Virus genome (UHGV): UHGV-0168042
Length of the DNA stretch: 64,000 nt
Direction: 5' to 3' (one strand)
Source of the DNA: a virus
The position numbers and the translations under genes are program-made. The notes under the pieces are model-generated. The model saw nothing but the letters and a program-made list of their open reading frames with translations. It was not told the DNA's origin and searched no databases. This document shows, one piece after another, positions 1-38,738 of the stretch. Every line of letters starts with the position of its first letter. Position 1 is the stretch's first letter.

Positions 1-1821
1 GTGCCGATTAAGGTACAAAAAGGCGGCAGCATGATGTAGCTGGTCATACTTTCCTCTGTTAAATGCCTCACGCACTTCGAGGTAAGCGTCAGCGTTGTTG
101 TAATTTTGGAAAAAACTATATGACAGCGTGACGAGCGAATGTCCTTCTCGCTGCAATGTCTGATAGAAGTTAATCAGGTCACCGTTAATATCATTAAGCA
201 GGTTGTGGCGAAATCCTGCATTCGTAAATACAGAACCGCCACCAACGAACGGTTCTATTAACCGCTTGCCGTGTGGTAGATGCTCAAGCACTGTAGGCAA
301 CTCTGAGAATTTACCGCCTACCCATTTGAAGATCGGACGCTCATATTCATCCGGAGTCCGGAGTTTTCTTGTGTAGGTAATGGTATTTATTGTTTTTGGC
401 TGTTTAGCTTCCACAGTCGCAAGAATGCGACACCCAATCCATTGCATAACAGGAACTGCCATGCTGTTGCCAATCGCTTTGTAACGCGGCCCGTCAGCAG
501 CGAGCATCGCGGCCTCTTCTTCGCTTAAATCTGGATAGTGATTGCGAAGGTATGCCAGTTCATCTGAGGAAATTGTTTTACGCTTTTCCGTAGGGATCAA
601 CGTATGCCCATCAGGAAAACCTTGCAGCCTTTCACATTCGACAGGGGTAAGACGGCGGACAGCTACTTCTGCGTTTCTTACTTCATAGCAAACGGCTGTT
701 GGATTTTGAGCCATTAGAGATGGTGAAGTATTCTTAGTTGCAGCATGTTGTGTACCGCTCATACGCTCAGGAAAAGCTAATGTAACAAGATGCTCATGGC
801 TTTCTTGCTCACGCGCCCGCAATGTACCATGCCCCTCTGACCAAAAACCTGCTCCTGTGCTGCTAAAAACGGCAAGGTCAGTGGCATCTTTAAAGTCTCT
901 TGCCTTTACTGTCGATGCGGTTTCATCGTCAATATATTCCCCAAATGCCGCCATCCTGAAAGCGTTTACGGCTTTCGTCGATTTCATACCGGGGGGCATG
1001 TCAGCGTGTAGGCATGGATTTAGGCTTTCGCCACTGATTGCAGCGCCATTTGCAATAATGGCGGAAGCGATTTCCTTCTTTTTTCGGCTCGGCGCAATAT
1101 TCCGGCGCACGCCTTCGAACTCAAAAAGTATCGTTGCGGGATCGAGGTCTGTTCGAGCACTTGCGACAACAAACACGCGTCGGCGTCGTTGCGCCACTCC
1201 GAAGTATTGGGCATCAAGGATTCTCCAGGCCACTTTTCGCTGCGGTCCATAAATACAACCACACTGCGGCCACTTTGGAGCATGGCAACTGGTTTTGACA
1301 TCCCACCGCCAGAACGCGTTACTTTTTCGCGATTCAGGTCGAGCACCTGGTTCGAATGGCGCATCTTCTCCAGCCAATCCGGCAAGGAAACATCCGAAGG
1401 CGTTATCTGCCGATGACAAGACTCCTGGGACATTTTCCCAGACGATAACGGCTGGTTTGAGAAATGACTCAGCCCGTTTGTCGTCAATTGCATTTGCAAG
1501 CTCCACATACTTTAAAGTTAGCGCGCCACGCTCATCATCAAGCCCACCACGTAATCCAGCGATACTGAATGCCTGACAAGGTGTTCCCCCGACGAGCACA
1601 TCAGGGGATTCGATTTCCCCAGCCAGGACTTTTTTGGCAAGTTTTGTCATATCGCCAAGGTTGGCGACATGGGGCCAGCGGTGCGCAAGAACGGCAGATG
1701 GAAAAGGCTCGATTTCAGCAAACCACGCCGGACGCATACCCAACGGTTCCCAGGCAATGCTCGCTGCTTCAATTCCACTGCAAACTGAACCATATCTAAG
1801 GTTAACGTTCTGCTTCACCAC
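1..1821 (-). CDS. dmt: Fused DNA methyltransferase: N-terminal C5-cytosine (Dcm-type) domain, C-terminal N6-adenine (Dam-type) domain; 3' end beyond window start
   Basis: Manual minus-strand translation is open from about 1821 to position 1 (not in ORF track because it runs off the edge). Contains GGTPCQAFS (PCQ motif) and WENVPGVL (ENV motif), then in the same frame [16 protein letters not shown] and [10 protein letters not shown] typical of Dam N-termini. GGAGG lies 6 nt upstream of GTG at 1819-1821. Confidence 0.8.
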
Positions 1822-2707
1822 CAACGGCCTCCACTAGCGAAGTGAACATCGCGGATAATTCAGCAGTAAACAGGATAAAGTCAGCGTCAAATCGTTGCGC
1901 AACATCCTCTCGATCAATATCGTCGTTCTGGTCGTACAATTCGTCGCTGAACGACAAAGCCTTGATACTCATATCGTCATTCAGTCTGAAAAATGCACGG
2001 TCTTGCCAGTTAACCGCAACTGTGGTTGCAACCTTACCAGCTTCTATATGACTCATGATCTCGTCGGATAGCAGGTCCACTTTTTTGCAGCGGACCGCGC
2101 CGCCATCATCAAGCAATGCTTTTAAGGTCGCTTCCTCACCGGCACGGAAACCGTTCGGGAAGCCATTTTTAATCCAGCCAGTGATGGTCAGTTCTAATGG
2201 GTCTTTCGGAGAGAAGGGGACAACGGGCAAGCTGCCAAGCGATTTCCGTAACAAAGCCAGCTGATCCTCTGCTTTTTTAGCACTGCTGGCCTCGACAAAA
2301 ACCAGATGATTGCTTCGGTCTATCAGGATTTTAGCTACTGATTTTCTCGTGAAAGCGCGAGGAAGAAGAGAGTGAAGCACTTCATCCTTCAGCGAATCTT
2401 TTTCGGTCTTCTTCAGCTTTCTGTCTTGCTCTTCTTCAAGTTTCAGGATTTTTTTCTGTAACTCTTCTTTGAGTACTTGAGAAGGTAGGATTTTTTCCTC
2501 TCGTTTATGCTGCATCAGAAGAAAACCCTGGTATTCATGGGTGAGGTTGTCGCCAAGAACGGGGGTCCAACCAGCTTTAGCCATATCCTGAGAACCGCAT
2601 GGGGTAAACACAAACTTGCTAAGGGCTGCATTTACTTCTGCAGTATCCCAGCTAACTTCGCGTGAAAGACGATAGATGAAGATATTTTTGAAAGCGACTG
2701 ATCTCAT
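1802..2707 (-). CDS. rdgC: RdgC-like recombination-associated protein
   Basis: 301 aa; N-terminus [17 protein letters not shown] resembles RdgC family; its last codons overlap the start of the methyltransferase gene (operon). Confidence 0.65.
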
Positions 2708-2720
2708 GTCTCACCATATG

Positions 2721-2750
2721 TGTTAGAAAATACATATTAATTATCTAACA
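2721..2750. promoter_or_regulatory. Operator-like inverted repeat TGTTAGA-N16-TCTAACA, 14-43 bp upstream of rdgC/dmt operon start
   Basis: Sequence TGTTAGAAAATACATATTAATTATCTAACA; perfect 7-bp arms, 16-bp AT-rich spacer; same architecture recurs at 4 other sites. Confidence 0.55.
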
Positions 2751-2766
2751 CAAATGGGTGCATTTT

Positions 2767-3420
2767 CTATCCTTTCTTGAAATCGAAGTTGCTAGCAGTG
2801 GCCTGAAAGGTTCCTCCTGCCTTGAAAGCTATGTCTCCGTTAGCGGTGACAGCAATATTTTCCCCTTTAACATTGATGTTGTTGGCTGATTTGACGTTAA
2901 CACTCCCTCCTGCATTCACGATTACATCAGCCGGACCAATGATATATATCTGCCCGGACTCATTCATGCCAATCCTTGAGCCTGCAGCCGTATTGGCAAT
3001 TTCATAGCCGCCACCAGCAGTTCGTACTTCAAGAATATTGTTGCGGTGAATAACGAAGTCTTTCGTTGCTGAGATTTGGGGGCGGGGAGGCGCTCCATCT
3101 ACTTCCGGCGGCGTCCAGCCGTTGCCTTTGCCAGATGCTTCTGGTGCAACGTTTGGAATTCCTCCCGGTGCATCCTGAGCGGCACCAACTATCATTGGGC
3201 GTCTGGTGTCTATTCGACCGTTAACATCTAAATAAGGAAACTCTACCCAGACCAGGTCACCTTTGACTGTGGGTACAAAAGCGTTTCCGATGGGTAACAG
3301 GTATTCCGCCCAGGGTAGATCGTCATCAGGAACGCCATTCCAGTCAGGTAAAACACGGACTTGAGCACGCATAAGCCCTGCCGGGTGCACAGTTCCAACA
3401 ATTTGCGCTCTACGCTTCAT
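2767..3420 (-). CDS. Phage baseplate central spike-like protein (gpV / Mu gp45-like)
   Basis: 217 aa; VKGDLVWVEFP...RRPMIVG resembles the N-terminal OB-fold motif of phage_base_V proteins; Gly-rich beta-helix-like C-terminus. Confidence 0.4.
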   Translation of the reverse strand: MKRRAQIVGTVHPAGLMRAQVRVLPDWNGVPDDDLPWAEYLLPIGNAFVPTVKGDLVWVEFPYLDVNGRIDTRRPMIVGAAQDAPGGIPNVAPEASGKGNGWTPPEVDGAPPRPQISATKDFVIHRNNILEVRTAGGGYEIANTAAGSRIGMNESGQIYIIGPADVIVNAGGSVNVKSANNINVKGENIAVTANGDIAFKAGGTFQATASNFDFKKG

Positions 3421-31912: not shown

Positions 31913-32941
31913 TTACGAATCCATCAGGCGGCTATTAGCCCCCACAGACACGCCGCCACGGCGAAGATACCGCATAAGTGTTTCCGGTTTCTTCCATGTT
32001 CCTTCCTGCATGATCTCCACCATAGACACCTGCTTTTCAGCCATATCAATAGCGGCCCCGACGCGTGCACTATGCCCGGTCCACGTCCGGTATCTTCCTT
32101 TGTTTGGCGTAGCATCTCTTTTATTCAGCAACACCCAGGCGTCGCTGAATATTTTCTCCATTGCAGGTGCAGTAAGGGGCGTTGTCGTGATCCTGGCCTT
32201 ATTGCTACGGTGTATCGGCGGGAACAGCACTGCGTCAGGATGTTCGCGAAGCCCGGAAACATCCAGCCAGTCATTCAGCACAGCGGTAGTGCGACGGGAA
32301 AGCACCTTATCAAGCCCGGCGGCGGTCGTTATTGTCTTCGTGTGTGAAATATGTAGCGTGACAGTGTCACCTGTTTGGTCCAGATCTCCTACACGAATAC
32401 GCGAGATTTCCGACATACGCATCAGCGTATTGTATGCAACAAAGAGAAAAGCCCGGTTGCGCAGGTCCACCAGCCGTTCTGACCTGGACAACAGGACGTC
32501 GAGCAGTTTCAGATCGTCCCACCGCAGCGGTATAGCCTGGCCTGTTCGTTCGCCTTTTTCCGTTGCCGCTTCACGCCGGATGCGCCGCATAGCCAGAGAA
32601 ACACTTTTATCATCCGAAAGTGGCGGAAGGCCACAATGCGAAAGCAGCATGTTAAGCATGGCGTAGTGCTTATCAATGGTGGTCGAAGCCAGATCAGCAT
32701 CATGCAGCTGGAGAAAATACTCGCGGGCCATCTCTGGTGAGATCGGGAACCAGGCGAGCTGGCGAGCGTGACACCATCTCGCCCAGGAGTGAAACACTAA
32801 CCGGAGATCGCGCAAAGTATTCGGCGCGTAAGCCCCCCGGTCATTCATGAACCGCATAAAGTTTTCTGCGGCCTCCTGGTACTCTTTGCCAATGTTGCGC
32901 AGAAAACCACCGGAGCTGCCAGAGATAATTAATTCACTCAT
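31913..32941 (-). CDS. dre: Cre-family tyrosine site-specific recombinase (Dre-like)
   Basis: 342 aa; aligns by eye with P1 Cre: WFPISPEMAREYFLQL vs WFPAEPEDVRDYLLYL, LRNRAFLFVAYNTLMRMSEISRIRVGDL vs IRNLAFLGIAYNTLLRIAEIARIRVKDI, TWTGHSARVGAAIDMA vs AWSGHSARVGAARDMA; palindromic site about 150 bp upstream. Confidence 0.85.
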   Translation of the reverse strand: MSELIISGSSGGFLRNIGKEYQEAAENFMRFMNDRGAYAPNTLRDLRLVFHSWARWCHARQLAWFPISPEMAREYFLQLHDADLASTTIDKHYAMLNMLLSHCGLPPLSDDKSVSLAMRRIRREAATEKGERTGQAIPLRWDDLKLLDVLLSRSERLVDLRNRAFLFVAYNTLMRMSEISRIRVGDLDQTGDTVTLHISHTKTITTAAGLDKVLSRRTTAVLNDWLDVSGLREHPDAVLFPPIHRSNKARITTTPLTAPAMEKIFSDAWVLLNKRDATPNKGRYRTWTGHSARVGAAIDMAEKQVSMVEIMQEGTWKKPETLMRYLRRGGVSVGANSRLMDS

Positions 32942-33335: not shown

Positions 33336-34373
33336 ATGAGTAAGAAGTCGATCGAGAAAGAGTACAAACGGTTCCTGCAAACCGCTGAACGGTGGAAAGA
33401 GCTGGTGGTCGCAAACTCTGTTTTCCATGATACCAGTTATGCTGGCGAGGAATTCCGCCATGTTGCATTAACGCATGACCAAAACATATTAGAAGAAGCT
33501 GAAAAATGTCTTGCTGAATGGAAAGCCTTCGTTGACATGTGTCGCGATGCCGACGGCAAAGCGTCGAACATTGTTGAGTCTGTATATTCTCCGATCCCAT
33601 TCATCATTGAGGACACCAATCAAAGCACGCATGTTGTTGTGCAAAGCGCTACAACAACACGTACATTTACACGTGAGCAATTGCTCAAAAAATACGACAA
33701 AATCATAAAGAAAAGCCTGAAAAATAGGGTTTTTTCTCAAATCGTAGGTGCTCTTGAAGAAGAACAGCGCTTCTTTGAAGCTGAGCCTGAAGGCGAGATC
33801 TACCGGGCGCGTAAAGAGGCATATACAGATGTTGTGCTGACAACAAACATCGAAGGCAGCAATGCCCTTTCTCGCTTTAGAGTTGGCGCACATGGCGCAT
33901 TGGTTTTCGCAAGACTACCGAAGACAACGATCCCCGTTGTCAATAATGTTGGTGAACGCCGGAGCATTACAATTTATTCTGGCGTCGAATCGGTACCTTG
34001 CAGCCTTCTCGGCGATTTTAACTTATATCGTGTTCGTGACCTGGAAAAACACCAGCCAAGCTACGTTGCGAAGTCGTACATCTTAAGGAACATCGATATT
34101 CGCAACGAAAACCTTAAGCAGAAATCCGCTAAGATGCTGGAGGATGCCGATCCGGCCATTCGCCATATCATTGAACGTAAGATTCGTACATCGCGTGAAG
34201 CAATGGCAAGGCTGGATAAAATGGATCTGGAATTGTTAGACGTAATGATGGCCTCTGGAGACGACCTGACCGGCATCAAACTGAATGAAGCGCGTAAAAA
34301 ATACGGCAAAGCAATCGAAGAACGTTACGGATACACATTCCCCCAAACGCAGCACGCCGCAAAGCTCTGGTAA
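33336..34373 (+). CDS. Hypothetical protein next to recombination site (candidate regulator; function unknown)
   Basis: 345-aa ORF; AGGAA RBS; sits between rox-like site and terminase in the position occupied by immunity genes in P1 (positional inference only). Confidence 0.45.
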   Translation: MSKKSIEKEYKRFLQTAERWKELVVANSVFHDTSYAGEEFRHVALTHDQNILEEAEKCLAEWKAFVDMCRDADGKASNIVESVYSPIPFIIEDTNQSTHVVVQSATTTRTFTREQLLKKYDKIIKKSLKNRVFSQIVGALEEEQRFFEAEPEGEIYRARKEAYTDVVLTTNIEGSNALSRFRVGAHGALVFARLPKTTIPVVNNVGERRSITIYSGVESVPCSLLGDFNLYRVRDLEKHQPSYVAKSYILRNIDIRNENLKQKSAKMLEDADPAIRHIIERKIRTSREAMARLDKMDLELLDVMMASGDDLTGIKLNEARKKYGKAIEERYGYTFPQTQHAAKLW

Positions 34374-34401: not shown

Positions 34402-35910
34402 TTATATATCCAGATCCGGCATTTCGATATCCGCCAGAACCTGATCTCGGAAAGTTGCCATTTCGGCACCAATATCTTCATTAGCAGGCACATAGTCCAC
34501 CAGCATAGTGAAGCAGTAGGTATCCCATCGGTCAGGCGATTTGATGTTTAGCTTTTGCCGCATGTGCTCTTTGCGCATCATCGCCATTTTCCCCTCTTCA
34601 TTCAGTAAAAAGGGGATTTTTGACGCTTGCTCTGCCGTTTTAGGGTCACTGTCTATCCGCATACGCCCTGACTTTATGGCATCACGCGCCATAATATTTG
34701 CGTAGGCACGCTGATTAACAAATCGCTCCCTGTCTTTGTTCGCAAACATGGGTTTTCCCCACCGAATACGTACCGGGTTCGCACCACGACGCACCAACTG
34801 CGCACACGTATCAGAACCAAAACCATCAGCATCAACCGCGATTGTTATATTCGGGTATTTTTCCGGCGTACATTCGTTATATATGAAGTCAGCAAAGGCC
34901 AATGGGTCCATAGTGCCAGGCATCTCCATTACCTTAAAGTTAACAACGCGCCGCTTATCCCTGTGACCTGATACCTTGCAGATGTTGAGGACCGACTTAT
35001 CTCGCCCATTACCAACGTCAGCCGTTGCCACCCATCCCCAGTTTTTCTCCAACAACACCTTGCGGCGAGCAGCGCGATCGCATTCATCACGACCAAGCAA
35101 ATAGCCGTTAATTTCTCGTGGGAACTGACCAAGCACCTTGACCATGTACTCAATAGAATCGCGCCCGCCATATTCCAGAAGCTTCTCCTTGATGAATTGT
35201 GGTGTGACGAACGGTGATTCTTCCGAGTTAAGAACAATTGCTGTCCAGATCCCTTTCGGGTTGCCTGGGGTTTTTGCTCGAGAATGGTGCGAATCGTAGA
35301 AATAACCACTTGGCCTTGTTGGCTGGGATAGCATCAACATCCGGTTATCTTCTTCAGTAAGAGCACCGGTCATTACGCCGATCGCCTTATCAGATATACC
35401 AGATGCTTCATCCAGAATTAGAAGCAAATGTGCCGCGTGTTCCCCCGCCAGCGCTTCTTCGTTGCCGAGTCGATAACCTTTGCAGAGAACTTCCCAAATC
35501 CCCTTACGGGAGCGCTCATAAAACATGGTGTCAGAGAGGACAAAATAGGTCTGCAACCACCCATGACGCTTAACTGCATTCGCCCAATACTGTTTAACGT
35601 ATTTGAATACGCCTGTTTTTACCTGGCCTATCTTGTTAGCAACAATGATGACACGGGCATCGGGGAACAGGATCATAAAAATCAACAGCAACATCGCGGT
35701 AAGGGACGACTTCCCCGTTCCGTGTCCGGACGTGACGGTAGTCCTACTCCCCGTTTCCTGTACGGACTGAATGATCTGCTGCTGCTGGTGGGAGGGGAAC
35801 ATCCCAAAAATATCGACAACAGCCTGGGTAAAGTTGTAGCGGTATTTGATTACCATATCGCGCCAGCGTGGATCTCTGGTGACGCATTTAACCTTGCGCC
35901 CGCCAGCCAT
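34402..35910 (-). CDS. pacB: Terminase large subunit
   Basis: 502 aa; Walker A TSGHGTGKS, Walker B LLLILDEAS; immediately downstream of the small-subunit gene. Confidence 0.8.
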   Translation of the reverse strand: MAGGRKVKCVTRDPRWRDMVIKYRYNFTQAVVDIFGMFPSHQQQQIIQSVQETGSRTTVTSGHGTGKSSLTAMLLLIFMILFPDARVIIVANKIGQVKTGVFKYVKQYWANAVKRHGWLQTYFVLSDTMFYERSRKGIWEVLCKGYRLGNEEALAGEHAAHLLLILDEASGISDKAIGVMTGALTEEDNRMLMLSQPTRPSGYFYDSHHSRAKTPGNPKGIWTAIVLNSEESPFVTPQFIKEKLLEYGGRDSIEYMVKVLGQFPREINGYLLGRDECDRAARRKVLLEKNWGWVATADVGNGRDKSVLNICKVSGHRDKRRVVNFKVMEMPGTMDPLAFADFIYNECTPEKYPNITIAVDADGFGSDTCAQLVRRGANPVRIRWGKPMFANKDRERFVNQRAYANIMARDAIKSGRMRIDSDPKTAEQASKIPFLLNEEGKMAMMRKEHMRQKLNIKSPDRWDTYCFTMLVDYVPANEDIGAEMATFRDQVLADIEMPDLDI

Positions 35911-37274
35911 TAATCATCCTCCGGCGGTTCTATCGCGATATCATCATCTCCGGCGTCATACCCTGCATCAGATGCATCATAATCACCGTAAATTTCAGCC
36001 GTTGCCGAAGGGTCAATATCCAGCTCTTCGTCGTTGGCCTCGAATTCTCCAGCTTTACGCTCGCCATTGCGGTCGTAATCTCCGCAACCCAATTCTTCAA
36101 CAATGGTTGCCACATCCGCCCGGCGCTCTGCCAGCCATAGCGGATGGTTAGCCTGAAGCGTTGCAAACTCCCTTGCCTCTTTGTCCAGCTGTTCATCATC
36201 AACATCATTGACGTCAGAAACAGGTGGTTCGAGAAGAGTGATAGCTTTCGCCGCGCGCGCCGCGAGGATAGCCGGGACGCTGACACCCTGGCGCTCGATG
36301 TATTCAGCAACACCGATATCATCCAGTTCCTCGCGCTCACGCATACGTATAGCGGCGGCGATAACTCTGGCTGCGCGTGCGTCAGCGCCAATGCGATATT
36401 CAATCTCTTTGCCACGCTGTTCGGCCTGTAGGCGTGCTAATTCGAGTTTTTCTCTGGCCTCAGCCTCTTTGAATGCTTGCTGGCGAGCGCTCTGACGAAG
36501 CTTTTCATCCCCCTGTCGCAGCTTTTGTTCGGACTGATATATAGCTGCCAACCTACTGATAAAATCATTCATGTAGTAGGCCGCGTCACTGATTAGACCG
36601 AGAAGGCGCTGCCCAGGGTGCATTCCTTCTGGCTCTTTATCGCCCAAGGTGTCTATTTCCGCCTGTAGACGTTCGGCCTCCTGATCAACAATGCTTTGAT
36701 ACTGAAGTGCGCGCTCTTGCGCCATTTGAATTGCTAACCGCAGGTGTTCTTCTGCGCCGTTCTTCATCATATCGCGAGCCACATTCGTAGTTGGCAATGT
36801 GGCACGCTGCACAGCACCGTCAGGGATCATTGCAGAAGATCCCTCAATTTTTGGGGCACTTTTATCTTCTTCGGGGATCATTTTCGCCATTTTTTCGCGC
36901 AATGATCTCCTGACGGATTCTTTTATCTCATTGTTATTATTTAAATTATTTTCATGATCCGAAGTTTTCTTTCTCGGCATACTTCGGAAAGAACCTGCGC
37001 CCTGCGAATTGTCAATTTCTGTAAATTTTGTTTTTTCTGCACCCTCTTCCTGCTTTTTTGTTGCTCTTCCTGCCCGTTTTTTTTCAGGTGATTTGGTGCT
37101 TTTTTTTGTTGTCTTTACCTGCGACCGCACCTCATTTTTTTTCATATTGAGATGCTTTCTGGCTGTATTGAAGCTAAGGCCATGCTCCTCACAGTATTCC
37201 TTTACAGTGATCCCTTTTTCTTCACGCAACGCTATAAAGCGGGCGCGGTGCTCCTCCCAATTAACCAGACTCAT
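35910..37274 (-). CDS. pacA: Terminase small subunit-like protein with N-terminal HTH and acidic C-terminus
   Basis: 454 aa; N-terminal GITVKEYCEEHGLSFNTARKHL HTH; six GATC sites cluster within about 36680-36960. Confidence 0.55.
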   Translation of the reverse strand: MSLVNWEEHRARFIALREEKGITVKEYCEEHGLSFNTARKHLNMKKNEVRSQVKTTKKSTKSPEKKRAGRATKKQEEGAEKTKFTEIDNSQGAGSFRSMPRKKTSDHENNLNNNNEIKESVRRSLREKMAKMIPEEDKSAPKIEGSSAMIPDGAVQRATLPTTNVARDMMKNGAEEHLRLAIQMAQERALQYQSIVDQEAERLQAEIDTLGDKEPEGMHPGQRLLGLISDAAYYMNDFISRLAAIYQSEQKLRQGDEKLRQSARQQAFKEAEAREKLELARLQAEQRGKEIEYRIGADARAARVIAAAIRMREREELDDIGVAEYIERQGVSVPAILAARAAKAITLLEPPVSDVNDVDDEQLDKEAREFATLQANHPLWLAERRADVATIVEELGCGDYDRNGERKAGEFEANDEELDIDPSATAEIYGDYDASDAGYDAGDDDIAIEPPEDD

Positions 37275-37663: not shown

Positions 37664-37741
37664 TAATCCCCCGGCAGGAAATGACCGAGGGGATGATAAT
37701 GAGAATGTTAAAACTGTATAGACTGGTAAAAAGATGATTAT

Positions 37742-37769
37742 ATTAGAAAATTAATATTAAATACCTAAC
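37742..37769. promoter_or_regulatory. Operator-like inverted repeat ATTAGA-N16-CCTAAC
   Basis: ATTAGAAAATTAATATTAAATACCTAAC in the 108-bp intergenic region upstream of 37271-37663. Confidence 0.45.
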
Positions 37770-37770
37770 A

Positions 37771-38163
37771 CTACCAGCGAGACAAACGAACAACATGTTT
37801 CACTTTTGCGATCCACTGTCCGCGATAACTATTGATTACGGCCTGTGCCAGCTTCAAATTGGCTTCAAAATCAGCCTTACTACCATCAGACTCCACCAGC
37901 ATTCCTCCATCTATTTCTGGTAAACATAGATAATCCTGCTCAACCTGCAGCGGCATTGATGGCTCTCTGAATGGCGTTACTTGCTCTGCTTTCCAGCGAA
38001 ATCTAACCCTCATCCCCCTGGTGGTCATTACTAGATAGCCTGTTATAGTGCTTTTATGGCCCACATCAGTACGCGTGGCATTGCATGACACGATCTTACA
38101 GTTAGCGATAGACCACTCCATATTGGTGGCCTGTTGAGTGCTTAATTTGGTAGTCCCGTACAT
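37771..38163 (-). CDS. Hypothetical protein
   Basis: 130-aa ORF. Confidence 0.4.
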   Translation of the reverse strand: MYGTTKLSTQQATNMEWSIANCKIVSCNATRTDVGHKSTITGYLVMTTRGMRVRFRWKAEQVTPFREPSMPLQVEQDYLCLPEIDGGMLVESDGSKADFEANLKLAQAVINSYRGQWIAKVKHVVRLSRW

Positions 38164-38738
38164 CAGAAAGCCTCCCAGTCAGTCGCGATAATATCCACAC
38201 CAGTTGCAAACCAGTCTGTCTGCGCCTGTAAATCACCATTCATCATTACCAGGCGAGGCATCACCATCACATCGCACCCTTCCACAATATCGAATGCCTC
38301 TTCCGGCAAGAATTCGAAGAGCTTTTCTTTGCTGCCAATGCTGCCACGGAACATCGATATATAGCTCCCTTTAGGCCATGATGTCCGCCGGGCATCAAGC
38401 CCTTTCATCATCCAGTAAAAAGCCGAGGAAAAAGGGATATTCTTTTTGCCAATGATTACATTATTCGCTTCTGTGTACTTCAGGAACTTAACTAACCTTA
38501 CCATTGACTCGGATAACGCAACGTATGGCTCATGATTGATTGCTGACACGCTTACACCGTGCAAATCCACGCTTACCACTGTCATATCACCGCTCTGTGC
38601 GGTTTCGATATTGACGCCTTTGCGAACTAATGAGGCGTAAAGTTCCTCTCGCTTTTTGGTCCAGCGTTCCCGCTTCCCTATGAAGTCACTCAAAATGAGA
38701 TCTTCTTCTGCATATGCGTTATCGTTCGCCATTAACAT
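38163..38738 (-). CDS. Hypothetical protein
   Basis: 191-aa ORF overlapping the downstream gene by 1 nt. Confidence 0.4.
   Translation of the reverse strand: MLMANDNAYAEEDLILSDFIGKRERWTKKREELYASLVRKGVNIETAQSGDMTVVSVDLHGVSVSAINHEPYVALSESMVRLVKFLKYTEANNVIIGKKNIPFSSAFYWMMKGLDARRTSWPKGSYISMFRGSIGSKEKLFEFLPEEAFDIVEGCDVMVMPRLVMMNGDLQAQTDWFATGVDIIATDWEAF

Follow-up and report, generated by a model that had tools for sequence, protein, structure and literature searches.

One end of the viral genome UHGV-0168042 (64,000 nucleotides; this whole stretch is called the window below) carries an open reading frame in which a C5-cytosine and an N6-adenine methyltransferase appear to be joined, next to an rdgC gene. 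The question is whether these domains form one polypeptide, whether such a gene is new, and what the enzyme might do. The dmt-like ORF lies on the minus strand (1..1818). It starts with a GTG at 1818, a start also chosen by PGAP in a relative, and stays open for 606 codons to base 1, the window edge; the gene probably has 762 codons in all. The original prediction of a single frame of at least 606 aa, with the C5 domain first, the Dam domain second, and no intervening stop, was borne out. The junction of the two domains (aa about 470-495, window about 335-410) is located within the window, so nothing past base 1 can part them, and a stop or frameshift beyond the window that splits the domains is ruled out. 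The RefSeq protein WP_047648400.1 (762 aa, our P0001), which is recorded on 73 contigs, is identical to the window ORF over its first 606 aa.

The C5-cytosine methyltransferase half (aa 1-470; 409..1818, minus strand) contains motifs I, IV, VI, VIII, IX, and X, all in order. Read from the sequence, these are motif I (aa 9-20, window 1759-1794), motif IV (GGTPCQ; aa 77-85, window 1564-1590, with PCQ at 1573-1581), motif VI (WENVPG; aa 127-132, window 1423-1440, with ENV at 1429-1437), motif VIII (QxRxR; aa 210-218), motif IX (aa 388-402), and motif X (GN; aa 448-457). The Pfam profile PF00145 matched the window ORF with 129.7 bits (cut-off 22), TIGR00675 matched the C5 half with 120.3 bits (cut-off 100.65), and M.HhaI matched it with E=5e-9. 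The AF2 model of the C5 core has a pLDDT mostly above 90. The inter-domain linker (aa about 471-492; 343..408, minus strand) follows, probably a flexible tether of about 25 residues, and the pLDDT falls below 50 for aa 477-500.

The N-terminal 114 residues of the Dam domain (D12-class N6-adenine; 1..342, minus strand) carry the KWxGGK, FxGxG, and NDIN motifs. As predicted from PCQ and ENV followed by a Dam-type motif set, they are in the same frame: FKWVGGK at aa 497-503, the FxGxG segment at aa 522-531, and LLNDIN at aa 540-545. PF02086 matched aa 499-606 with 76.4 bits (cut-off 22); the window edge truncates this match at position 116 of the 253-position profile. The DPPY motif and the GATC-reading segment of Dam lie beyond this edge; WP_047648400.1 has FCDPPYEPL, and TIGR00571 matched its full domain with 245.9 bits (cut-off 114.85). 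The Dam half of P0001 belongs to the same D12-class fold family as E. coli Dam (PDB 2g1p; E=1.4e-57) and DpnM (2dpm; E=1.8e-45), with K-W-x-G-G-K, FxGxG, and DPPY in common. However, several DNA-contact positions differ from these two enzymes (L to V, P to G, R to K). They differ likewise in P1 Dmt, and across the residues that align to YNGLCRYNLRGEFNVPFGRYK of E. coli Dam, the Dam half of P0001 and P1 Dmt are the same. Unlike E. coli Dam and DpnM, this Dam is phage-borne, fused behind another methyltransferase, and probably repressor-controlled. The sequence evidence already fixes both methyltransferase folds.

The upstream gene is rdgC (301 aa; 1802..2707, minus strand), a homologue of P1 hrdC, with the gene order of P1, P7, and D6. 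It belongs to the RdgC family by PF04381 (341.4 bits, profile positions 3-298 of 298) and NF001462 (386.5 bits, cut-off 330). The tight coupling to rdgC in the original prediction agrees with the arrangement: the dmt-like start overlaps the end of rdgC by 17 nt. At this candidate translational-coupling junction (1802..1832, minus strand), a GGAGG at 1832-1828 precedes GTG 1818 by 9 nt, and the rdgC stop codon is at 1804-1802. The 17-nt overlap and the GGAGG within the rdgC end suggest that rdgC and dmt may be translated in a coupled manner from one transcript.

The same pair is known from phage P1. P1 Dmt (YP_006537.1, 754 aa) has the same C5-then-Dam order, and its coding region overlaps that of the upstream rdgC-family gene, hrdC; in P7 the hrdC-dmt order and a C5-then-Dam protein are annotated as in P1. 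The window ORF is likewise one C5-Dam polypeptide directly after an rdgC-family gene of a P1-related plasmid prophage. The E. coli plasmid p702_18_3 shares 99.6% DNA identity with the window over 2750 nt, and D6-type c1, dre, lpa, pacA, and pacB are also present in the window. By these comparisons, rdgC and the dmt-like ORF are the known hrdC-dmt operon of phage P1, within a D6-like, P1-related E. coli plasmid prophage. The double methyltransferase ORF is therefore ordinary. The gene is not new: the hrdC-dmt pair of P1 has this domain order too, and RefSeq already contains an identical protein. The original prediction was correct on the structure, but it did not recognise the known operon.

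Sequence comparison also showed that the locus is mosaic. Its flanks are D6-type, while the C5 core is about 96% identical to P1 dmt. The C5 halves of the window protein and P1 Dmt share about 96% aa identity and the same 142-aa variable-region allele (98.6%), whereas the Dam halves share only about 70%, and the linker and Dam half of the window are D6-type, not P1-type. In P1, uhr precedes hrdC; in the window uhr is absent, and baseplate genes lie directly upstream. In D6, orf65-orf64-orf63 encode HrdC, a small cytosine methylase, and Dam at the same position as the window locus, between the baseplate genes and glnS. D6 and the window are 97-100% identical in the first 360 nt of rdgC and in the Dam gene (98% DNA identity of the Dam part to orf63), and they have the same upstream intergenic region. 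However, D6 has two separate, overlapping methylase genes, whereas the window has one fused gene. The 226-aa cytosine methylase of D6 is unrelated to the P1-type C5 module, which replaces it in the window from codon 5 to the linker and so produces the fusion. On this comparison, the gene is a recombinant, with a P1-type C5 module in frame with a D6-type linker and Dam module. The DNA breakpoints of the P1-like/D6-like junction fall in the linker region (window about 360-434), and the exact C5/Dam junction was found in 11 of 5426 complete E. coli genomes.

The control region bears on when the enzyme would be made. A candidate rdgC-dmt promoter (2714..2769, minus strand) has a -35 element TAGAAA at 2769-2764 and a -10 element GATAAT at 2745-2740. 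An inverted pair of the motif TGTGTTAGA (2719-2727, plus strand; 2744-2752, minus strand) lies over it as a candidate repressor operator, and a pair with the same 25-nt geometry was also found upstream of lpa. In the window, the motif occurs 15 times, compared with 0-2 times in shuffled sequences. Among the loci with a site upstream are c1, lpa, ref, the tRNA operon, and rdgC, a set that parallels the C1 regulon of P1. From this position and recurrence, we infer that the paired motif is a repressor operator. P1 and P7 annotate a C1 operator (Odmt/Op68, Op(dam)) at the same spot upstream of hrdC-dmt. The P1-type C1 operator is absent from the window, which has the different recurrent motif instead; a scan of the whole window for the P1 consensus ATTGCTCTAATAAATTT, allowing up to 3 mismatches, found none. 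The recurrent motif, in the form TrTGTTAGAAAAnTAAttt, was also considered as a late promoter of the P1 kind (9-bp box, 4 nt, -10 hexamer; cf. LPpac). This was rejected, as the supposed spacer is itself conserved and the motif occurs 30 nt upstream of c1 and, in paired form, ahead of lpa, which encodes the late activator. For the predicted internal late promoter LPdam2 of P7, the window matches only 6 of the 9 box positions.

The paired operator-like motif over the promoter suggests that the operon is off in lysogens. The methylome of an uninduced lysogen may therefore show nothing. This arrangement also weighs on another possible role, that of an epigenetic regulator expressed in the lysogen and acting on host or plasmid DNA (for example, on plasmid replication or host genes) and not in the lytic cycle. 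GATC methylation controls the P1 origin oriR, where five Dam sites are annotated in the P1 record, and orphan epigenetic methyltransferases are common in prophages (PMC12707154). However, the inverted pair overlaps the -10 element of the only upstream promoter-like site, the C1 operator of P1 and P7 occupies the same spot, and Dam is already supplied by E. coli hosts. Such a regulator is thus considered unlikely.

From homology to P1, the most likely function would be phage-borne GATC adenine methylation that licenses pac cleavage, combined with orphan protective m5C methylation. In the lysogen, the promoter immediately ahead of rdgC would be covered by a C1-type repressor bound to the paired operator. 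Derepression would then give rdgC and dmt on one transcript with coupled translation. As in P1, the Dam half would methylate GATC on replicating phage DNA without need of host Dam. The C5 half would add m5C, without a partner endonuclease, at targets set by its variable region, and this modification might shield injected DNA from cytosine-targeting restriction in new hosts. P1 Dmt methylates GATC, and P1 needs GATC methylation at pac if the host lacks Dam (P1 annotation; PMC12707154; PMC11437467). Any phenotype may be conditional, because P1 can do without hrdC and dmt when the host is dam+ (PMC10695390). The anti-restriction or epigenetic roles first proposed for the window ORF match the record of its P1 homologue, although the P1 and P7 annotations give C5-cytosine methylation by Dmt only as 'perhaps'.

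Dam activity was also predicted to connect to GATC sites in the terminase gene. Five GATC sites (36825..36959, minus strand) are present within the D6-type pacA (37274..35910, minus strand), 316-447 nt from its start, and their positions are identical in D6. They might be the counterpart of a pac site and a target of the Dam half. In P1, eight GATC sites at 195-376 nt flank the mapped pac cut. However, the cluster of 5 sites in 131 nt is not significant alone, as an equally tight cluster occurred in 23% of random placements over the 64 kb (P=0.23). The D6-type PacA also differs from that of P1: tblastn detected no similarity between the two, and tblastn and blastn searches against phages found D6 only, with no link to P1. 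Since the cluster is weak alone and PacA lacks similarity to P1, the Dam-pac link in the D6-type element is drawn by analogy only.

The protein might also be the modification half of a restriction-modification system with its endonuclease elsewhere on the element. In favour of this possibility, P1 does carry a type III system (EcoP1I res/mod) elsewhere in its genome; one record is named 'del res del mod'. However, both halves, Dam and C5, belong to orphan phage types, and the gene sits between hrdC and unrelated genes in P1, P7, and D6. In agreement with the prediction of no cognate endonuclease nearby, the annotation of the 99.6%-identical plasmid shows none over about 4 kb on the downstream side or 50 kb on the upstream side. 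The gene is flanked there by baseplate and tail genes and a RelE/HigA pair in one direction and by glnS and par genes in the other; none is the adjacent endonuclease of a type II system. Thus, a restriction-modification half is highly improbable.

It might also be that only the Dam half works and that the C5 half is a catalytically dead remnant, scaffold, or DNA-binding module. The 'perhaps' in the P1 annotation would fit this, as would the low AF2 confidence on the variable region and the P1 reference sequence itself, in which the nearly invariant Gly77 of motif IV is Trp (WGTPCQ). The window copy differs from that reference in having the canonical GGTPCQ, along with all six motifs. The catalytic residues G78, P80, C81, Q82, E128, N129, and V130 are invariant in 149 representatives, among which the Dam domain was sought by a local phmmer search. 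The dN/dS against P1 is 0.12 for the C5 half as a whole and 0.08 for its variable region; by this measure, the C5 half is under purifying selection. Moreover, the same C5 module exists in a stand-alone 473-aa form with 123 member sequences (P0115), and this would be difficult to reconcile with a dead domain. A dead C5 half is accordingly improbable.

A functional C5 half would owe its targets to the variable (target-recognition) region between motifs VIII and IX (aa 246-386; 661..1083, minus strand), which is the P1-type allele. This region contains four TLxA-like motifs (aa 268, 302, 331, and 366), 29-35 aa apart, where about 0.5 are expected. At least six mosaic cassette alleles were found among near relatives, whose cores are near-identical yet whose variable regions, of 60 to 250 aa, are mosaics of common blocks. 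The variable region of P7 and of P0112 is one 60-aa block; P0120 combines this block with another, which is also the last in the P0096 array. The P0098 region corresponds to the initial 96 aa of the arrays in P0096 and P0094, and the middle 75 aa of the window/P1 allele are common to these two. A multispecific enzyme would fit such alleles. The orphan multispecific C5 enzymes of the Bacillus phages SPR, phi3T, and rho11s, a principle cited in PMC12707154, have, like the Dmt C5 half, an invariant catalytic core and a long, module-wise variable region. Unlike these enzymes, the window protein is fused to Dam, and its multispecificity is a candidate reading. The AF2 model built with 149 homologues has a pLDDT below 50 over aa 245-373 and is uninformative on tandem modules. 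A PDB sequence search with the variable region alone returned nothing meaningful, and no sequence similarity of this region to any solved enzyme was detected. It is a tentative and rather doubtful suggestion that the C5 half is multispecific, with the variable region as an array of exchangeable target-recognition cassettes.

Overall, we give a probability of about 0.85 to the whole reading, that is, the hrdC-dmt operon of a D6-like plasmid prophage encoding one C5-linker-Dam polypeptide, probably of 762 aa, with the mechanism proposed above. As found, the locus has little significance beyond a correctly read case of a gene described with the P1 genome. The dmt-like gene can serve as a marker identifying the window as a D6-like phage-plasmid, and it provides a clean example of an in-frame domain swap between the P1 and D6 lineages. 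If the cassette reading is true, the window allele, which has four TLxA motifs, would modify several target sites unrelated to one another. Were each block to recognise a sequence of its own, phage-plasmids of the P1/D6 type would shuffle anti-restriction specificities in the manner of the Bacillus phages. Only if the cassette reading is right, Dmt alleles could explain host-range differences among resistance-carrying P1-like phage-plasmids.

The left end of the window carries genes on the minus strand only. The rdgC gene (2707..1802, -) encodes 301 aa (Pfam RdgC, 341 bits), and its 3' end overlaps the start of the dmt-like ORF by 17 nt. This ORF starts at GTG 1818 (alternative starts, GTG 1821 and TTG 1824), 9 nt downstream of a GGAGG at 1832-1828 (-), and stays open on the minus strand for 606 codons to base 1. 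It contains all six C5-cytosine methyltransferase motifs in canonical order, with PCQ at 1573-1581 (-) and ENV at 1429-1437 (-). Dam-type N-terminal motifs, LLNDIN among them, come after a short linker. Pfam assigned PF00145 (129.7 bits) and PF02086 (76.4 bits, the match being cut by the window edge). The original prediction of a single ORF, C5 then Dam with no stop between, was accurate to the residue, in the 606 open codons as in the motifs. The domain junction is itself within the window (about 335-410), so a stop or frameshift past base 1 would leave the two domains joined and at most truncate Dam.

The same arrangement is found in P1, where hrdC, a gene of the RdgC family, is followed by dmt with overlapping ends; the P1 Dmt protein also has the domain order C5 then Dam. 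The P1 record describes dmt as a 754-aa 'bifunctional DNA methyltransferase' acting on N6 of adenine in GATC and 'perhaps' on C5 of cytosine, with transcription from Pdmt controlled by the C1 operator Odmt; the P7 annotation is the same. The window feature is therefore the P1 hrdC-dmt operon, found again in a D6-like relative. As P1 Dmt with hrdC it was known before, and RefSeq has an identical protein. The 2750 nt share 99.6% identity with the E. coli plasmid p702_18_3, in which the ORF immediately 3' of rdgC bears the annotation 'Dam family' methyltransferase, with a length of 762 aa (WP_047648400.1). Residues 1-606 of this protein are identical to those of the window; the protein collection lists it on 73 contigs and has dozens of 762-aa clusters that are nearly identical to it. 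What was seen at first reading was thus correct, and its interpretation essentially right. Some database copies of the methyltransferase (P0014, P0042, P0097) are named 'multidrug DMT transporter permease', which looks like an annotation error spread from the gene name dmt.

The ORF is set in the gene context of phage D6, a plasmid prophage related to P1. D6-type genes in the window include c1, the Dre recombinase, lpa, pacA, and pacB. Homologues of Dre, the Cre-like recombinase of D6 used with rox sites (31913-32941, -), and of the D6 C1 repressor (33336-34373, +) confirm a D6-type immC region. Homologues of the P1 baseplate/tail genes 5, 6, 24, and 7 are also present, as is a RelE/HigA pair. 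The next gene past the window edge, in D6 and p702_18_3, is glnS, in the opposite orientation. Collinearity with the closest plasmid (NZ_CP074704.1), at 98-99%, extends over the packaging, immunity, and tail regions; the accessory early region (7069-30455) is rearranged, with blocks missing, replaced, or reordered. A 191-aa ORF (38163-38738, -) has a counterpart in a relative annotated as 'Thoeris anti-defense Tad2 family protein', and a large SNF2-related (DarB-like) gene begins near 45.7 kb; these two genes add to the counter-defence cargo of the element.

The dmt-like ORF is a mosaic of P1 and D6. Its product shares about 96% identity with P1 Dmt over residues 1 to about 460. From the linker on, it matches without a difference the Dam that D6 encodes as a separate 301-aa protein (orf63), against only about 70% identity to the Dam half of P1. 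At the DNA level, about 1790 to about 470 is P1-like (90-100% identity) and 360 to 1 is D6-like (98%). D6 has instead an unrelated 226-aa cytosine methylase (orf64), encoded by a separate overlapping gene, which opens with the same four codons, VKQN, as the window ORF. The window gene is thus the product of a C5-module exchange from codon 5 to the linker, which placed a P1-type module in frame with a D6-type Dam. Among 5426 complete E. coli genomes, 11 share this junction, and several hundred more have either the gene in its P1-type form or the separate genes of the D6 type. The rdgC gene is mosaic too. It shares 97-100% identity with D6 over the first 360 nt, and the rest, with 62-85% identity to D6 and about 50-77% to P1, is divergent from both and therefore comes from a third lineage.

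The Dam half of the full-length relative matches E. coli Dam (PDB 2g1p, E=1.4e-57) and TIGR00571 (246 bits, cut-off 115), and contains DPPY. At the positions that differ from the E. coli Dam segment YNGLCRYNLRGEFNVPFGRYK, its residues are the same as in P1 Dmt, which is on record as GATC-specific; from these common residues the window copy is predicted to be GATC-specific as well. The C5 half carries a canonical GGTPCQ, and its catalytic residues do not vary among 149 representatives of the subfamily, a very large one with 4482 clusters at E<=1e-30. Overall dN/dS against P1 is 0.12, and that of the variable region 0.08, which argues against a decaying C5 domain. The AlphaFold model has confident cores in both halves, but low confidence in the variable region and in the linker (aa 477-500); the latter fits two autonomous, tethered domains. 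With the C5 subfamily clustered at 50% identity, 10 of the 148 closest representatives also carry a Dam-like domain, so the C5-Dam fusion recurs outside this lineage.

Codon 75 of dmt in the P1 reference (NC_005856.1) is Trp (VWGTPCQ), and aligns with window aa 77 (1588-1590). The residue at this position is Gly in 141 and Ala in 8 of the 149 representatives, and Gly in the window, P7, JL22, and all other relatives examined. The Trp could be the reason why the C5 activity of P1 Dmt stayed 'perhaps'. Some Dmt relatives (the database proteins P0093 and P0121, and OP279344.1) contain an intein exactly at the catalytic Cys of PCQ (GGTP/C...VVHN/CQAFS). In OP279344.1 ('P1 del res del mod', 286-2738) it is full-size with LAGLIDADG-like motifs, giving a Dmt of 1013 aa; P0093 has a Pfam Hint domain (PF13403) on record. 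In P7 (NC_050152.1), a predicted late promoter, LPdam2, is annotated inside the C5-coding part of the dam gene (2474-2492), and a separate Dam product late in infection is a possibility there; at about 560-580 of the window, only 6 of 9 positions match the LPdam2 box.

Relatives with almost identical catalytic cores have a motif VIII-IX region in at least six forms, 60 to 250 aa long. Pairwise comparison showed that these forms are mosaics of common blocks. P7 and P0112 have a single 60-aa block; P0120 has this block and a second one, which also ends the P0096 array. The P0096 and P0094 arrays both begin with the 96 aa that make up the P0098 region, and both share the central 75 aa of the window/P1 allele. 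The window allele contains four TLxA-like motifs (aa 268, 302, 331, and 366; about 0.5 expected from shuffled sequence). No relative of the variable region was detectable among solved structures, and the AlphaFold model is uninformative over it. The multispecific C5 enzymes of Bacillus phages, an anti-restriction strategy (PMC12707154), are built in this way. A multispecific C5 half of this design is a tentative and rather doubtful reading of the block pattern.

The neighbouring genes contain no endonuclease, as had been noted at the outset. This absence and the phage-type family point to orphan protective methylation by the C5 half. For the Dam half, a link to the GATC cluster in the terminase gene had been proposed. 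P1 packaging needs Dam methylation of GATC at pac, so dmt is essential for P1 only in Dam- hosts (PMC12707154, PMC11437467); a CRISPRi screen found hrdC and dmt non-essential in a dam+ host (PMC10695390). P1 pacA has eight GATC at 195-376 nt, on either side of the mapped pac cuts. The D6-type pacA of the window (37274..35910, -) does contain five GATC at 316-447 nt, at the same positions as in D6. However, random placement of the sites gives an equally tight cluster somewhere in 64 kb in 23% of trials, and similarity between the D6 and P1 PacA proteins was undetectable. GATC is otherwise neither enriched nor depleted in the window (230 observed, 250 expected). The analogy with P1 pac is reasonable, if weak.

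The only promoter-like site lies in the 59-nt gap 5' of rdgC (-35, 2769-2764; -10, 2745-2740), together with an 18-nt inverted repeat at 2714-2757. The 9-mer TGTGTTAGA in its arms belongs to a 17-20 nt asymmetric motif, TrTGTTAGAAAAnTAAttt. This motif occurs 15 times in the window (2719-2752, 14182, 14844, 20098, 31896, 33306, 37739-37772, 42328, 42484, 43733, 44776, 54676, and 55871), compared with 0-2 times in shuffled sequence. Two inverted pairs with the same 25-nt geometry are located upstream of rdgC and of lpa. A single site precedes c1 by 30 nt, and further sites lie upstream of the ref homologue and the tRNA cluster. The P1 records list the C1 operators Odmt, Olpa, and Oban; Oref is also among the P1 operons controlled by C1. 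The P1 C1 operator consensus is absent from the window. Since the sites fall at operons that C1 controls in P1, the motif is probably the D6-type C1 operator, in place of the P1 consensus. From its position, rdgC-dmt would be silent in the lysogen and expressed once repression is lifted, so methylation is expected in virion DNA or after induction, not in quiescent lysogens. To a known system, the window adds two minor points, the D6/P1 recombinant form and the candidate operator.
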